From: a bacterium
GTDB taxonomy: Bacteria > UBA8248
Reading direction: 5' to 3'
Assembly (NCBI GenBank): GCA_965221165.1
Contig: CBDCRP010000002.1
Location: 448,001-512,000, forward strand
Length of the DNA: 64,000 bases
The notes under the pieces are model-generated. The model searched no databases. It was given only the letters and a program-made list of their open reading frames with translations, and had not been told where the DNA came from. The position numbers were made by a program, and so were the translations under genes. Below are positions 45,794-52,894 of this stretch, in pieces (positions within the stretch are counted from its first letter, which is position 1; each line of letters starts with the position of its first letter).

Positions 45794-46061
45794 GGGAAAT
45801 AGGGCCGATGCGCAACCGCTTACTTCACCCGAGCGCCCGAGCAATCCAGCGCGTGCCTATCGGGTCGACCACCGAATTTTCTCCCGCGGGAACTATGCAT
45901 TTCCCCGTATCACCATCTGGTCGTGATGGGACGAAATCAACAGGATAAATCCGGATCTTAGAGCGGCGAAATCAGGTCTATAATTTCTGAAAATAAGTGA
46001 AAAATAGTAAAAAATAAGACAAATATCTGAAAAATTCTGAAAATTTATCGCACGCGGGTGG

Positions 46062-46126
46062 TTATCCACATAAATACACAATATTTGGGGATACCGTGTG
46101 GGTAAGTTCATATATTTTGTGGATAT
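46062..46126. promoter_or_regulatory. Cluster of DnaA boxes
   Basis: TTATCCACA at 46062-46070 (perfect); TGTGGGTAA at 46097-46105 and TGTGGATAT at 46118-46126 (one mismatch each, reverse orientation). Confidence 0.6.
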
Positions 46127-46207
46127 CGATTTTTTTTATATTGACAGAGGGGAACAAAGCATACTACATTTAGTGTTACGAGTTGGTTTCGTCATACTAA
46201 ATATGTC
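46077..46207 (+). promoter_or_regulatory. nrdJ sigma70 promoter with NrdR-box-like sites
   Basis: TTGACA at 46141, 18 nt, TACATT. NrdR-like ACACAATATTTGGG (46077), ATACTACATTTAGTGT (46161, overlapping the -10) and ATACTAAATATGT (46194). Confidence 0.65.
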
Positions 46208-46246
46208 CCCGACATAGCGGGGCGCCTTTAGCGGAGGAGACAGGGA

Positions 46247-49200
46247 GTGGAGTTTACGAGGCGTTTTACCCGGGCCGGAGATGAGGCGTATAGCGACATT
46301 CGTTTCGCGCCGCGCACCTCACGCATCACCAACCCGGACGGCTCGGTCGTCTTCGAAGCCAAGGATATCATGGCGCCGGAGAACTGGTCCCAGGTGGCCG
46401 TCGACATTCTGGCGCAAAAATACTTCCGAAAAGCTGGCGTTCCCGCGCATTCGAAAAAGATTCACGAAGAAGGAGTGCCCGAGTGGCTGCAGCGCTCGGA
46501 GCCAGACACGGAGAAACTCGAACCCTTGCCCGAAGCCGAGCGATTCGGAAGCGAGCGAGACGCCCGGGACGTTTTCCATCGCATGGCGGGATGCTGGACG
46601 TACTGGGGCTGGAAACACGGTTACTTTCATACAGAGGACAACGCCAAGGCGTTTTATGAGGAGCTTTTATACATACTTGCGAGCCAGATGGCTGCTCCCA
46701 ACTCGCCGCAGTGGTTCAATACGGGCCTGCACTGGGCCTACGGCATTACACGCCCTGCCCAGGGCCACTTCTATTGCGATCCCGAGACGGGGGAAATACT
46801 CCGCTCCGTGAATGCTTACGAGCGTCCCCAGCCACATGCGTGCTTCATACAATCGGTAAAAGATGATCTCGTCAACGAAGGCGGAATCATGGATTTATGG
46901 ACGCGCGAAGCGCGCATCTTCAAGTACGGCTCGGGAACCGGCACGAATTTCTCGAGCCTGAGAGCGGACGGAGAATCGCTATCGGGAGGTGGGAAAAGCT
47001 CCGGCCTCATGAGTTTCCTGAAGATTGGAGACCGCGCCGCGGGCGCCATCAAGTCAGGCGGCACGACGCGCCGGGCGGCGAAAATGGTTACACTCGACAT
47101 AGACCATCCCGACATCGAGGAATTCATCAACTGGAAGGTGAACGAAGAACAGAAAGTGGCCTCTCTGGTATCAGGCAGCAAGATGTGCAGCCGACATATG
47201 AACGCCATTCTCGGGGCTTGCTTGGAGGGGGAGAACCTGGGCTTGAATGGCAACTTTCATCAGCCGGATAAAAATCCATCACTCGCCAAAGCGATACGCG
47301 CCGCAAGGCTCGCCGGTGTTCCGGACAATTACATTCATCGAACCCTTCAACTCGCACGTCAAGACATCACCGAGGTCGAGTTCGAGGAATTCGACACGAA
47401 TTGGGAAGGCGAGGCCTACACTTCAGTGTCCGGGCAAAACTCGAACAATTCCATACGTGTTTCGGATGGATTCATGGAAGCCGTCGAGAAAAACACGGAC
47501 TGGAACCTGATTCGGCGTACCGATGGCGAAATCGCCGCCTCCGTCAATTCAAAAGAACTTTGGGAACAGATTGGATATGCGGCGTGGTGCTGTGCAGACC
47601 CCGGTCTTCAATTCGACACGACTATCAACGACTGGCATACATGCGCCGCCGATGGGCGCATCAATGGTTCCAATCCTTGCTCGGAATACATGTTCTTGGA
47701 TGACACCGCATGCAATCTGGCGTCCATGAACCTCATGAAATTCCTGGATATCGACAAGAATCATTTTCGGGTAGAAGACTATCGCCACGTTATTCGCCTA
47801 TTGACGGTTGTCCTCGAAATTTCAGTGCTTATGGCGCAATTCCCCAGTGAGGAAATAGCCAAACGCTCATATGAGTATCGAACCTTGGGACTTGGATACG
47901 CCAACCTGGGCACCGTGTTGATGGTTCTCGGCATCCCTTACGATTCGCCGGAAGCAGAAGCATGGTGCGGCGCTCTCACTTCCATCATGACGGGTTGCTC
48001 GTATGCCACCAGCGCCGAGATGGCGGGGGAACTGGGAGCTTTCGCAAGGTATCAGGATAATCAAGAACACATGTTGCGCGTTCTGAGAAACCATCGCCGC
48101 GCAGCTTATTCCGTGCCTGAAGCCGAATACGAAATGCTCTCTAAAGCGCCCAAAGGAATCGCTGCGGAAATCTGCCCGCATTACCTTCTTGATGCGGCGC
48201 GCGAAGCGTGGGATGACGCTTTAGCCATTGGCTATCGAAACGGTTACCGGAATGCGCAAACCACCGTTATCGCCCCGACAGGCACCATCGGTTTGGTCAT
48301 GGACTGCGACACAACGGGAATCGAACCGGATTTCGCTCTGGTGAAATTCAAAAAACTGGCCGGAGGCGGTTATTTCAAGATCATCAACCAGTCTGTTCCC
48401 GTTGCTCTGCGGCATATGGGCTATGCCGACGAGGAGGTTCGCGAAATCGTCGCTTACTGCCGAGGGCGAGGCACTCTCACGAATGCGCCTCACATCAATC
48501 CAGAGTCTTTGCACGCGAAAGGATTTACCGGTAAGGCTCTCGAAAAGGTGGAAGCCGCACTAGAAGGGGCATTTGAAATCCAGTTCGCCTTCAACAAATA
48601 CTCCCTCGGTGAAGATTTTTGTCGTGAGGAATTAGACCTCAGTGAAGCGCAGATGGCCGACTGGAATCTGAATCTGCTTGAAGCCATTGGTTTTACCCCA
48701 GAGCAAATAAGCGAAGCGAATGATTTCGTTTGCGGCAAAATGACGCTAGAAGGCGCACCTCACCTAAAAGAAGAACATTTGGCTGTTTTTGATTGTGCAA
48801 GCAAATGCGGGAAAGAAGGCAAGCGCTTCATCAGTCCCATGGCACACGTCCGGATGATGGCGGCGGCGCAGCCCTTCATATCGGGCGCCATCAGCAAGAC
48901 CATCAACATGCCCGCAGAATCCACGATCCAAGATATCTTAAGCATCTACCATGAATCGTGGCAGCGGATGACCAAAGCCATTGCAATTTACCGCGATGGT
49001 TCCAAACTGAGCCAGCCGCTTTCCGCGCAAAGCGAAGCGGAACTCTTCAATGACATCGGTGAAGAAGAAACAACTGCTGACCAAAGCGCTCCGGTTCGCG
49101 TCGCCCAGCAAATTGTGCGCCGGATTATTTACCAATCCAGAAGACGCAAGCTGCCCACCCGCCGTGGTGGCTACACGCAAAAAGCCGTCATCGGCGGACA

Positions 49201-49840
49201 CAAAGTCTATCTTAGAACCGGGGAATATGAAGACGGCTCCATCGGCGAAATTTTTATAGATATGCACAAAGAAGGCGCTGCCTTCAGAAGCCTCATGAAT
49301 TGTTTCGCCATCGCAATTTCGCTGGGTCTTCAGCACGGCGTACCATTGGATGAGTTCGTGGATGCTTTCCTCTTCACGCGTTTCGAGCCGGGCGGTATGG
49401 TCTCGGGCAACCCGCATATCAAGATGAGTACATCTATCATCGATTACATTTTCCGTGAGCTGGCCGTTTCATATCTCGGGCGCCACGACCTTGCACAAGT
49501 CGTGTCAGAAGACCTGAGAAGCGATACTATTGGGCGACCTCAAGAAGAGATTCCGGAGTTCGATACAGAAGAAGAGGAAGAGATTCGAACCATAATCCCA
49601 GGACCGGATGCAAGCGCACCACGCAGTGACCGAGTAAGTTTGAATTATGACAAAGAAACCTCTAGTGCCTCGATGGCACCTCTAACAAAAGCAAGTTCCG
49701 CTCTTGATTCCCGTATCGAAGAAGCCCGCGCTAAAGGATACGAGGGTGAAGCATGTGGTGATTGTGGTTTATTCACCTTGGTGAGAAACGGCACATGCCT
49801 GAAGTGCATGACTTGTGGCGCTACGAGCGGATGTTCTTAA
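46247..49840 (+). CDS. nrdJ: Class II adenosylcobalamin-dependent ribonucleotide reductase
   Basis: [49 protein letters not shown]-terminal CxxC...CxxCG. Confidence 0.96.
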
Positions 49841-49849
49841 AAATTACTA

Positions 49850-50150
49850 CCCGTCGTGGGGAAAACGGGCGGACTCTGCGACGGGACGAGAGTCGGGGGA
49901 GAATCCTCGGAGGGCTATCCCCCGACTCTCACCAAAATAGGGTTTCAGGAAATTTTCTTGTTGCGGGGGAAACGGGCGGACTCTGCAGCAAGACCGGGGG
50001 CCGGGGATAATACACCTCGGGGGTTGAGTTTCCGGCCCCCACTTAAATTCAATGGTGATTTTCTGCTGCGGGGGAAACGGGCGGACTCTGCGGCAGGCCG
50101 AGAGCCGATGGAGCCTCCTAGTGGGAGTCTTCATCGGCTCTCCCTTTTTC
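49850..50150 (+). ncRNA. Three tandem ~105-nt two-hairpin structured RNA-like units (unknown family)
   Basis: Core GGGGRAAACGGGCGGACTCTGC at 49858, 49965 and 50070, closed by different but complementary stems; a second long hairpin in each unit; G-U pairs favour the + strand; ends in a T-run. Confidence 0.7.
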
Positions 50151-50159
50151 GGTAGTGTC

Positions 50160-51035
50160 TCACTTTGAAATCTTCTTCTTGTAAGGGCCACGCGGACCCG
50201 GCTTCGGTTCCCGCGCTTCAATGAGTTCGAGTATCCAGTTCATATCGCGCAATTCAGAATCAAGGCCAGCGGCCATCGCTGGCGTAACCCGCAAACTTTT
50301 GTGGATGCGGCAAAAGTTATAGTGCACGAAATACAACGATAGCATGTGGATATGATTCTCAAGTTTCTTCGAGAAGCCATTCGTTAGACGAGTGAAACGG
50401 CGCATACACATTCTCATGGTGAGGTTTTGTCTTTCAGCGTAGCTGGTGGAGATATGCGCCGGATCGGCCATTCCGGTTACCATCGACATTCGAGTTCCAA
50501 TACATTCAGAAGGGCTGTATCTCCCATCCTTCTCTGATTGACCATATAGCTTCACTAGCATGGCGTAATCAACATCATCCCCAAAGGCATCTTCAACCGC
50601 GTCAAGATATGCCTTGTGGCCGTCTGTGGTCACCTGAACGCGGTTTGCGAGTCTTTCCTTTACATCGGCCATGAACTCATTCGCATAGCCGCTATCACGA
50701 CCGCCTACGAGATAAGAGACAATCAGTTTGCTATCGGCATCTAAAGCCGTCCACGTCCACACGTCACCCGCATCTTCCGGTGCGGCTTCGGCAGTCGCCA
50801 CGTTCTTTTGCTTCGCATAGACAAACGACCATATCTCATCGCACTGGATTCTCTTTGACTTCACATTGCGAACTTGGTGGTCGTGAAATTCTGCGCAAGC
50901 CTCTCCCGCTTTGATGAGCAGTTTCGTCACAGTGTTGATGGACGCGCCCGTTACGCGGGAGATTGCCCGCATGGACATTCCCTCGATAAGAAGGTTGAGT
51001 ATTTGGATTCTTTTATCTGTGTGTAATTTGTTCAT
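50160..51035 (-). CDS. IS1-family DDE transposase
   Basis: N-terminal HTH, QCDEIWSFV, TTDG, STSYAERQNLTMR, RFTRLTNGFSKK, TPAMAAG; stop codon lies inside the left IR. Confidence 0.92.
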   Translation of the reverse strand: MNKLHTDKRIQILNLLIEGMSMRAISRVTGASINTVTKLLIKAGEACAEFHDHQVRNVKSKRIQCDEIWSFVYAKQKNVATAEAAPEDAGDVWTWTALDADSKLIVSYLVGGRDSGYANEFMADVKERLANRVQVTTDGHKAYLDAVEDAFGDDVDYAMLVKLYGQSEKDGRYSPSECIGTRMSMVTGMADPAHISTSYAERQNLTMRMCMRRFTRLTNGFSKKLENHIHMLSLYFVHYNFCRIHKSLRVTPAMAAGLDSELRDMNWILELIEAREPKPGPRGPYKKKISK

Positions 51036-51080
51036 ACATATAATATATGAACTTTATTGCTTAGTGTCAAGTGCAAAGTG

Positions 51081-51344
51081 CTACTCTTTGGAAAAAACTT
51101 CCGAATTAAATGGAGTCAGGTTTTTCCATTTGCGGTCATCGCTTTTTAACCACTCTTCATCATAGTGGTAGACACGACTTTTGTGGTGCCCACATATTAT
51201 TTCTACCGCCGACGAATCGCCTGCTTCTAGCTTTTCTGCATTCTCTTCATCTGTGATGAAATATCCAGTCTCGTTCTCATCTAAAATCACTCCCACGAAA
51301 ACATCATCGAAAGCGCATCTGACGATTACCTTTTCTCCACGCAT
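51081..51344 (-). CDS. Hypothetical protein (IS passenger)
   Basis: 87-aa ORF with GGAG RBS; no recognised motif. Confidence 0.55.
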   Translation of the reverse strand: MRGEKVIVRCAFDDVFVGVILDENETGYFITDEENAEKLEAGDSSAVEIICGHHKSRVYHYDEEWLKSDDRKWKNLTPFNSEVFSKE

Positions 51345-51516
51345 CTCAAATCTCCATTTGGGCGAGGTTCAAACCTTGCCCATTCTACCAGTGCCACAAA
51401 GTAGATTCAAAAAAAGTCTAATTTTTACGATTTATGGTATTGACTCTATGGCACATACCGTTAATATCTATCAGATGTTAATGGTAATGGCACAACTCTA
51501 ATGTGAGGAATTTAAT

Positions 51517-52212
51517 ATGAGCGACGAAGCCGGATCCAAAACACCCGCCCCGCCATATTTGGCGTTCATTACTTTTCTGGGATTCATAGAGTCGATGGCG
51601 ACCATTGGTCTCCCGCATCAGATCGACAAGAGCATCATGAAAAATATGTCTGGCGCAAATCAAAATTGGACGCTTAGTTGCCTGAAATATCTCAAACTGA
51701 CCTCAGAAGGAAATAGGCCTACAGATAAATTCAAACAACTCGTTTCGGTGGATGGCGAAAACAGAAAAGAACTGATGAAGGATATCATAATCAACGCATA
51801 TCCTTTCATATTCAGCGCAGAAGGATTTGATATTAAGACCGCTACGGAAAAACTACTTAATGAGCAATTTGACAGTACAGGGGTGGTAGGCGATACGAAA
51901 AAAAAATCTGTCAGATTCTTCATGAATGCGGTGAAGCATGTAGGTATAGAAATTTCGCCTTATCTGGATCAAATGAAACTCCGAGCCAGGACACCCACAA
52001 AAAACAAAAAAACAAAACGTCCTCTAGGAACCAATGGAAATAACAAGACGAAAGATAAAGAGCCACAAGAGCCGCCAGAAAAGGAGAAAGACACATCCTC
52101 CGACAGTAATTTCAATCAATCTCTCCTAGACAAGATTCCTCCGTTCAATCCTGAATGGACTGAGGAAACTTTGATTAAGTGGCTGGATACAATTAGCAAA
52201 CTGAAAGGGTAA
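51517..52212 (+). CDS. DUF5343-like hypothetical protein (IS passenger)
   Basis: PPY...TF, P..IDKS, L.YL.L, PT..F..LV, AY, FF N-terminal domain; charged linker; KIPPFNPEW tail; GAGG RBS. Confidence 0.65.
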   Translation: MSDEAGSKTPAPPYLAFITFLGFIESMATIGLPHQIDKSIMKNMSGANQNWTLSCLKYLKLTSEGNRPTDKFKQLVSVDGENRKELMKDIIINAYPFIFSAEGFDIKTATEKLLNEQFDSTGVVGDTKKKSVRFFMNAVKHVGIEISPYLDQMKLRARTPTKNKKTKRPLGTNGNNKTKDKEPQEPPEKEKDTSSDSNFNQSLLDKIPPFNPEWTEETLIKWLDTISKLKG

Positions 52213-52217
52213 AAACA

Positions 52218-52246
52218 CCCCCTGATGGAGGTAAGCCATCAGGGGG
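52218..52246 (+). terminator. Hairpin after the DUF5343-like gene
   Basis: CCCCCTGATGG-AGGTAAG-CCATCAGGGGG with no T-tail; could allow read-through or processing. Confidence 0.5.
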
Positions 52247-52255
52247 GGATGAAAC

Positions 52256-52331
52256 GGCCCCGTCGCCAAGTGGTTAAGGCGCGCCTCTGGCAAGAGCGTA
52301 TACGCCGGTTCGATTCCGGTCGGGGCCTCCA
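52256..52331 (+). tRNA. tRNA-like gene: Cys-type body with GGC in the anticodon position
   Basis: GGCCCCG/CGGGGCC acceptor, U73, CCA; D arm GCC-AAGTGGTTAA-GGC; T arm GCCGG-TTCGATT-CCGGT; anticodon arm CGCCT-CTGGCAA-GAGCG. Confidence 0.75.
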
Positions 52332-52344
52332 AATGAGATTGAGT

Positions 52345-52417
52345 GGGGGGTGTGGATGGTTCCCAGGTCAGGACTTAGGCCCCCGTCCTTGGGGTTCGAT
52401 TCCCCAACCCTCCACCA
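52345..52417 (+). ncRNA. tRNA-like RNA with Ala-type acceptor (G3:U70, A73) and non-canonical D/anticodon region
   Basis: GGGGGGT/ACCCTCC-A-CCA acceptor; T arm TGGGG-TTCGATT-CCCCA; the middle does not fold into a standard cloverleaf. Confidence 0.55.
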
Positions 52418-52423
52418 ATCTCA

Positions 52424-52648
52424 TTACTTCGATGTTCCTTTGTTCCACCGCGAATTTGCGGCTTTTTGTGCAATCTCTTTTCGTCTTTCAGGTGATAGCT
52501 TTTCTGCGCGGGCACGTCCGCCCGATCTGCCAAGTATCTGCCCAGCGGTCTGAGTCTCCACAACTTCACCCACCGCAATCTTGGCTACATTGACTGCGCA
52601 CCCTACCACATCACCGGGTCTTTTCTGTCCTTGTGGGCCAGTAGCCAT
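52424..52648 (-). CDS. Small basic IS-associated protein
   Basis: KRPGD, GRSGGRARAEKLSPERRKEIAQKAANSRW; a type I recognise from IS1/IS1595-like elements; AAGGA RBS. Confidence 0.8.
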   Translation of the reverse strand: MATGPQGQKRPGDVVGCAVNVAKIAVGEVVETQTAGQILGRSGGRARAEKLSPERRKEIAQKAANSRWNKGTSK

Positions 52649-52775
52649 GTCGAAAATTCCTTTTATGCAATGACGACTATTATCGTCACACGACGATTAT
52701 TGTTGCAACCCCTTTCGAAGTCAAGGGAAAATGGAGGGCGATAAATTTCAAAGTGAGACACTACCCCTTTTTCAC

Positions 52776-52818: not shown

Positions 52819-52894
52819 GGGGGTGTAGCTCAGATGGGAGAGCGCGTGGATCGCACCCACGAGGTCAGGGGTTCGAATCCCCTCACCTCCACCA
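52819..52894 (+). tRNA. tRNA-Ala (CGC)
   Basis: Canonical 76-nt cloverleaf; CGTGG-ATCGCAC-CCACG anticodon arm; G3:U70; ACCA. Confidence 0.95.

Follow-up and report, generated by a model that had tools for sequence, protein, structure and literature searches.

A structured RNA family of narrow distribution behind nrdJ in Nitrospinota-like bacteria

Introduction

Why would a bacterial genome carry three copies of one hairpin module directly behind the gene for its ribonucleotide reductase? Ribonucleotide reductase (RNR) sets the supply of dNTPs, and to our knowledge its control in bacteria has been described almost entirely at the promoter, by NrdR and others. The locus considered here lies in a stretch of 64,000 nt of bacterial DNA (the window) from a genome of 3.69 Mb (G000). 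A sequence-only reading had described the units behind the gene as a multicopy structured RNA of unrecognised family, possibly an sRNA cluster, a sponge or a guide-like array. What are these units, how widely do they occur, and what might they do for the gene that they follow?

Three two-hairpin units at the end of nrdJ

The gene is nrdJ (46247..49840, + strand), which encodes a class II, B12-dependent RNR according to its ORF and its Pfam matches (Ribonuc_red_lgC, 3.1e-126; Ribonuc_red_2_N, 7.5e-43; TSCPD, 3.2e-10). It is the only RNR found in the 96%-complete genome, with a single large-subunit locus, and neither nrdB nor nrdD was found there. The portion of the NrdJ alignment examined shows no family-specific domain.

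Immediately 3' of nrdJ there are three units of two hairpins each (49848-50146, + strand). The stop codon TAA is at 49838-49840, and the first hairpin (H1) of unit 1 begins at 49850 with 9 nt between. A 20-nt core, GGGGRAAACGGGCGGACTCT, occurs at 49858, 49965 and 50070, with spacings of 107 and 105 nt; three matches compare with 0.01 expected, and this number was reached in 0 of 100 shuffles. H1 consists of a stem of 12-13 bp and a 12-nt loop, and the three H1 stems are unlike in sequence while each is paired, as had been claimed from the letters. A linker of 2-3 nt leads to the second hairpin (H2), in which a stem of about 13 bp is followed by an internal loop and a short apical stem that closes a 3-nt loop. 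AU-rich spacers separate the units, and CCCTTTTTC stands directly 3' of unit 3. Every detail of the layout given by the sequence-only reading (the 9-nt gap, the three units and their spacings, the linkers, the AT-rich spacers and the T-run) is therefore correct. The predicted folding energy of the 320-nt stretch is -160.3 kcal/mol, that of shuffled sequences -123.7 +/- 5.3 (z = -6.85), and none of 100 shuffles equals it.

Unit 1 (49848..49934, + strand) is recognised by fold, by sequence and by a match of 97.4 bits to the covariance model R1 described below. Its H1 (49850-49885) has a 12-bp stem and the 12-nt loop AAAACGGGCGGA at 49862-49873, and its H2 (49888-49930) is preceded by the linker AC and followed by the tail ACCA. 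Unit 2 (49955..50044, + strand; 80.2 bits to R1, and fold) has its H1 at 49956-49993 with the loop GAAACGGGCGGA at 49969-49980, then the linker CC, H2 at 49996-50040 and the tail ACUU. Unit 3 (50060..50146, + strand) matches R1 with 90.8 bits; its H1 is at 50063-50096 with the loop at 50074-50085, and its H2 is at 50100-50142. The last hairpin doubles as a terminator hairpin: a terminator-like site is located at 50123-50142 with the tail CCTTTTTCGG, and the U-tract CCTTTTTC follows at 50143..50150 (+ strand, from sequence). The combination of a GC-rich hairpin and a U-tract expected of an intrinsic terminator is found at unit 3 H2 plus CCTTTTTC, and at the last H2 only.

Is the array a transcript of its own or a part of the nrdJ message? 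No promoter-like site was found between nrdJ and the array, so a location in the 3' UTR is the natural reading, and the array is probably co-transcribed as part of the nrdJ mRNA. The simplest use of such a tail would be purely structural, with hairpins that serve as exonuclease barriers and as the nrdJ terminator and insulate the gene from the promoter of a downstream tRNA-Ala, and with no binding partner. The terminator-like last H2 with its U-tract is in line with this, and so are the great stability of the hairpins and the relatives of this locus, where most genera have a U-run behind the last unit and internal units have none. The conservation of the units bears on this account and is described next.

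Covariation, strand and invariant nucleotides

The model R1 was built from 46 units and has 87 positions and 28 pairs. The resulting alignment holds 97 units (84 distinct) from 37 loci. In the 84 distinct units 97.5% of the pair cells are standard pairs, compared with 86.1% in shuffled alignments and at most 55.7% with slid partners, in an alignment that is fitted to R1 and so favours the structure. Compensatory changes occur in 22 of the 28 pairs, and 0 of 500 shuffles attain any of the pairing measures. An independent alignment with MAFFT and RNAalifold gives compensatory changes in 19 of 26 pairs. The earlier reading had proposed a covariance model as a check and had named absence of covariation as a refutation; with such a model built, covariation is present.

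The wobble pairs give the strand. The top four pairs of H1 are G-U, G-C, G-U and G-C. Pair 13:30 is G-U in 82 of the 84 distinct units and pair 11:32 in 64, and the G-C pair 14:29 is unvaried in all 84. R1 scores 80-98 bits on the + strand and 27-31 bits on the reverse strand. Both stems contain G-U wobbles, each of which the opposite strand would have to form as an A-C mismatch; with the weak reverse score, this shows that the constraint acts on the + strand RNA. The element is a + strand structured RNA with a constant loop; the claims that the non-Watson-Crick pairs are G-U on this strand and that the loop is constant are both borne out.

Beyond the structure, many nucleotides are fixed. The loop nonamer CGGGCGGAC is invariant in the 84 distinct units. 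Across the 8 genera, G12, G14, the loop positions C21, G22, G23, G24, C25, G26, G27 and A28, and C29 are the same in 84 of 84, and A20 is kept in 81. The H1 loop is purine-rich (..ACGGGCGGA). The tip of H2 reads C-C-U-N-G-G-R-G-G, where C67, C68, U69, G72, G83 and G84 are each present in at least 80 of the 84 units, and a C two nucleotides 3' of H2 is found in 80 of the 84. The internal loop of H2 is variable in size and sequence. Mutual information in the unit alignment gave no tertiary or pseudoknot covariation, that is, no pairing outside the helices.

This pattern weighs against a purely structural 3' end. A barrier needs neither an invariant 9-nt loop nor fixed G-U wobbles nor a conserved H2 tip, all of which hold over 84 units and 8 genera, and the loop sequences of ordinary terminators drift freely. 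Moreover, the element is found at one gene only in each genome. We consider it unlikely that structure is the whole purpose of the array.

Could the conserved nucleotides form a ligand pocket? A riboswitch-like aptamer in the 3' UTR would sense an RNR-linked metabolite, such as a deoxynucleotide or a cobamide, and steer decay or termination. The very high sequence conservation, the small fold and the tie to a single metabolic gene are what one would expect of it, and some riboswitches are known in tandem. But the conserved nucleotides lie in terminal loops and not in junctions or internal loops, the internal loop of H2 varies, and no tertiary covariation is seen outside the helices. The array also lies 3' of the gene, its internal units have no obvious expression platform, and no Rfam family matches it. 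We give an aptamer a low probability.

Distribution among genomes

How widely is the unit distributed? R1 was searched against 51 genomes of the phylum. Units were found in 36 of the 41 genomes of one Nitrospinota-like family, with 1-4 tandem units at a single locus in each positive genome, and in none of the 9 genomes of three sister families. The five negative genomes of the family are drafts of 280-560 contigs with 79-93% completeness; because several arrays lie at contig ends, assembly breaks are the likely cause of these negatives. A search with the core pattern in 101 relatives detected tandem sets in 37 of the 41 genomes of the family, again at one place per genome. Among the 37 arrays, 5 have one unit, 9 have two, 18 have three and 5 have four. 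Decayed units exist as well: in L016, L023 and L024, for instance, an H2 has lost its H1.

Outside the family the unit was not detected. When 80 nrdJ loci from across the bacteria were searched, R1 matched only the three that belong to the same family. The other 77, which include five loci of Nitrospina, Nitrospinaceae and Nitrospinales at 56-61% identity, gave up to E = 1 one weak match on the minus strand (L063, 20 bits, E 0.43), which we take as chance. No R1 match was obtained among 80 of the matches listed for metagenome loci with the loose pattern GGGNNNNCGGGCGGACTCYG, nor in the 6 loci from a search of viral sequences. With Rfam 15 at gathering thresholds, the whole window contains only 3 tRNAs, and an E-value scan of 49780-50220 gave at best 19.7 bits against a cutoff of 60. 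The family that had gone unrecognised by eye thus matches none in Rfam, and a hit there had been named as a possible refutation. A full-text search of the literature brought up nothing on such an element in an nrdJ tail or in Nitrospinota. The array unit is a new structured RNA family of narrow distribution, located in the nrdJ 3' tail.

Is the array a dispersed DNA repeat?

Tandem hairpin-rich DNA between two genes might also be a repeat at the DNA level (a REP, a MITE or a recombination site), and dispersal of this kind had been named in advance as a finding that would speak against an RNA element. In G000 the core is found only at the array, apart from one match with 2 mismatches that reads as coding sequence, and the array is the only match of R1. 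Other H1-like hairpins were sought at the 524 sites of CGGGCGGA in this genome, and none has a stem longer than 10 bp. Core and R1 are confined to the array locus and no other long-stemmed H1 was found at these sites, so the array does not behave as a REP or MITE; with one locus per genome, the search for dispersal found none.

There is in G000 a dispersed REP-like repeat of another kind. It has the form CGGGCGGACAC-(4-6 nt)-palindrome-CCCTAC, or on the other strand GTAG and then a hairpin, and its 11-mer occurs 61 times compared with 6 for the reversed control. Examples are at C2:152410 and C3:1225962, and a partial copy of the motif lies in the window at 52516-52531. The repeat is mostly intergenic, its enrichment is limited to part of one genus, and genus g5 has 0 copies; its orientation is unbiased, with 10 sense and 8 antisense copies by crude gene calls. 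No Y1 (RAYT-type) transposase was found in G000. The H1 loop has 9 nt in common with this repeat (CGGGCGGAC), which is a point in favour of a DNA-level origin. On the other hand, g5 has the unit and no copy of the repeat, the array stays at a single locus, its G-U pairs are strand-specific and would turn into A-C mismatches if the other strand folded, and the repeat shows neither orientation bias nor an accompanying Y1 transposase. Its distribution and orientation rule it out as partner or origin of the array, and the common nonamer is probably a coincidence. The reading as a DNA repeat is already contradicted by the data, and we give it next to no weight.

Is hairpin 2 a variable module?

It had been supposed that H2 is a variable module beside the constant loop, as in a guide-like array. 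In 12 three-unit arrays of the window genus, comparison between genomes gives an identity of 90-95% for units at the same position and of 87-94% for H2 alone. Between different positions within one genome, the identity is 67% for units and 60% for H2 alone, and the variation in H2 is compensatory. High identity at the same position with low identity between positions indicates that the units are old position-specific orthologues under purifying selection. This runs against the idea of a variable or guide-like module. As for the proposal of a multicopy ncRNA, the structured RNA with a constant loop stands, while many copies are evidently unneeded, as 5 arrays have a single unit.

Two known kinds of repeated RNA were considered and rejected. 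CsrA as a partner to be sponged is not supported by its distribution: PF02599 was detected in 8 of 51 genomes, in 0 of 22 of genus g1 and in 0 of the 4 unit-bearing genomes of g5, and control genomes were positive. The sponge idea fails, as far as CsrA is concerned, in all 22 genomes of the genus. A ToxI-like array of a type III toxin-antitoxin system was rejected because a terminator ends the array and the next feature is tRNA-Ala in 14 of 21 loci and a mobile element in the window.

The array and its neighbours

Which neighbour does the array depend on? The first unit lies 6-27 nt 3' of the nrdJ stop in 34 of 37 loci, where the NrdJ C-terminus reads C..CG.T.GCS. The stop codon before the array in these 34 loci is TGA in 16, TAA in 13 and TAG in 5. 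The use of all three excludes a stop-specific recoding signal, and a SECIS-like signal was rejected on the same count, since the array is tied to no one stop codon. In the other 3 of the 37 loci, from genus g9, about 100-400 nt lie between nrdJ and the array, which shows that the array need not follow the gene closely. In two g9 genomes this gap holds an ORF of 83-94 aa that has a Shine-Dalgarno-like site of its own (L009, 1232-1483, + strand; L010, 1588-1869, - strand), and in L010 it has taken the place of the first unit's H1 and of half its H2. Being present in 2 of the 51 genomes of the phylum and without a Pfam match, this ORF is not the partner of the array. Nor does the array itself code for protein: units are spaced 94-123 nt apart, by distances that vary from genome to genome and of which most are not divisible by three, so that ORFs over the array are incidental, and a coding role was rejected for want of a conserved reading frame.

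The ancestral downstream neighbour is tRNA-Ala(CGC), in the window at 52819..52894 (+ strand), which is preceded by a conserved promoter-like CTTGACAC...TACCTT. Of 21 loci scanned with ARAGORN, 14 have it 3' of the array; of the seven misses, four are the g5 loci, and L116 and L120, at contig ends, and L009, with masked letters, are uninformative on its presence. The tRNA neighbour is thus inconstant, and the constant neighbour of the array is nrdJ.

In the window the array is parted from this tRNA by a mobile insertion of 2,615 bp (50151..52765) with perfect 21-bp terminal inverted repeats, which is not part of the RNA element. The insertion point is exactly the U-tract of the array terminator. 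The 8-bp target-site duplication CCTTTTTC is found at 50143-50150 and 52766-52773, and relatives have a single copy of CCTTTTTC followed by CACTTGACAC, with no mobile element. The insertion contains an ORF for an IS1-like transposase (50160-51035, - strand; weak Pfam match), a DUF5343 ORF (51517-52212, + strand), a tRNA-Ala(GGC) (52256-52331) and a fragment resembling a tRNA 3' end (52391-52419).

A possible docking site in the nrdJ message

What, then, might the array do? We favour, at about an even chance, that it is a set of cis-acting modules in the 3' UTR which offer the invariant loop to a putative trans-acting factor and so couple the fate of the nrdJ mRNA to a signal. A sequence-specific factor would dock on the invariant loop of H1 and the tip of H2; a protein is the likeliest candidate, ahead of an RNA or the 30S subunit. 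Its binding would set the stability or the 3'-end fate of the mRNA, adding a post-transcriptional layer to the promoter-level control by NrdR, and tandem copies would provide more docking sites. The constraint on sequence beyond structure, seen in loop and tip over 8 genera, counts for a docking factor. A plain exonuclease barrier or terminator would explain the hairpins too, but not the invariant loop. A search for an RNA-binding gene linked to the array locus found none.

One special form of docking might be offered by the ribosome. The H1 loop octamer ACGGGCGG is fully complementary to CCGCCCGU, nt 1408-1415 of the 16S rRNA of G000, which we take to be the universally conserved stretch of the decoding centre and the classic '1392R' universal primer site. 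The NGGRGG of the H2 tip resembles a Shine-Dalgarno sequence, for which the CCUCC tail of 16S rRNA is a possible pairing partner. Each unit could then hold the small ribosomal subunit at two points, and units placed just after the stop codon might capture post-termination or immature or inactive 30S subunits on the nrdJ mRNA. If true, dNTP supply would be tied to ribosome status, or the 3' end of the mRNA would be shielded. The match was equalled by 409 of 5000 composition-matched shuffles of the loop in 16S, and by 930 of 5000 in 16S and roughly 23S; with 409 of 5000, the complementarity to 16S is not significant on its own. We see only a slight chance for this form.

Might the units instead act in trans? 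They could be sRNAs derived from the 3' UTR: cleavage within the AU-rich spacers would release units of about 85-105 nt, whose H1 loop would serve as a seed on C-rich targets that contain the complement UCCGCCCG. The invariant loop is indeed seed-like, the single-stranded AU-rich spacers are possible RNase E sites, the last unit uses the mRNA terminator in the manner of known 3'-UTR sRNAs, and the copy number varies from 1 to 4. The search for complements of the constant loop that the sequence-only reading had suggested, made in the four small, low-GC g5 genomes, did not bring out a conserved target: the 8-mer complement occurs at background frequency, since each genome has 6-11 sites for it and 2-11 for the reversed control. 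One extra site is common to the four genomes, but its sense strand has the loop motif and not the complement. Leaders of nrdJ from the window and from 11 loci in 7 genera were searched as well; they hold no conserved complement and show no conserved pairing with the tail. Two matches with 3 mismatches elsewhere in the target search resemble coding sequence by eye. An origin of trans-acting sRNAs from this array is therefore rather unlikely in our judgement.

The extra site common to the four g5 genomes is itself a hairpin. It is a terminator hairpin 4 nt 3' of a gene that reads, by eye, as cation-antiporter-like (L147, L160, L148 and L159, near position 1500). It has CGGGCGGA in a bulge on the sense strand in 4 of 4 g5 genomes, and it has no match in Rfam. 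This gives a weak hint that it may be a second docking site, and the lead is only a weak one because the four genomes are close kin.

Comparison with known systems

Is there any known system of this logic? The 3' UTR of the transferrin-receptor mRNA has five tandem iron-responsive elements (IREs) bound by IRP1/2. Like the array, these are small tandem hairpins behind a single metabolic gene, in its 3' UTR; the loop is invariant while the stem covaries, so that function is a matter of the loop's binding partner. They differ in being eukaryotic, with a CAGUGN loop, a C bulge and a known binding protein, whereas the nrdJ array is bacterial and has a 12-nt loop and a second conserved hairpin in each unit. 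The IRE may be regarded as the nearest analogy, in logic only and not in membership. The 3' stem-loop of histone mRNA with SLBP could serve as a second analogy in logic: it too is a conserved 3'-terminal hairpin, and the level of its mRNA follows DNA replication, a coupling that RNR has as well; but it is a single 6-bp stem with a 4-nt loop, of other sequence, in metazoa.

Among bacterial elements the nearest kinds appear to be REP stabilisers and 3'-UTR sRNAs. The REP/BIME elements of enterobacteria, for example at malE-malF, are likewise tandem GC-rich hairpins after a gene, and such hairpins can block 3'-5' exonucleases. They are dispersed in hundreds of copies in either orientation, in contrast to the single locus, strand specificity and invariant loop of the nrdJ array. 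The sRNAs CpxQ, SroC and DapZ resemble it as conserved elements at an mRNA end with a common terminator, but they are single, mostly linear seeds with known targets and Hfq, and the nrdJ units are tandem hairpin modules. CsrB and RsmZ present repeated hairpins with a GGA-containing loop; these sponges are stand-alone genes with many short hairpins, unlike an array in an mRNA tail, and CsrA was found in none of the 22 genomes of g1 or the 4 of g5.

A module in the nrdJ 3' tail points to a post-transcriptional layer of control of a kind for which there is hardly any documented case among bacteria. Should the partner of the loop be a protein, it would be a new RNA-binding regulator of bacteria, and its site would be unusually well defined. 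The family is compact, with 22 of its 28 pairs showing compensatory changes over 87 positions, and is therefore suited to Rfam and to structural work. One limitation should be noticed: its narrow range, a single family of uncultured Nitrospinota-like bacteria, limits the general reach and makes experiments hard.

Other features of nrdJ

Some minor observations concern nrdJ itself. In L044, from Thermoflexales, the nrdJ product has 1840 aa with a large insertion after the conserved PQPHAC motif, which looks intein-like by eye from the alignment. In the window, NrdR-box-like palindromes were seen by eye around the promoter-like TTGACA of nrdJ (46060-46215), and the same arrangement stands 5' of nrdJ in most of the other family leaders examined; such palindromes occur in leaders from 7 genera. 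Long leaders of about 250 nt have a conserved CGAATAWAATACGAA about 70-120 nt before the start codon (L286, L287, L290, L291, L292 and L293; genera g2, g8, g9, g7 and g4). The motif is missing from the short leaders of g1 and g5, and it could be a second regulatory element of nrdJ.
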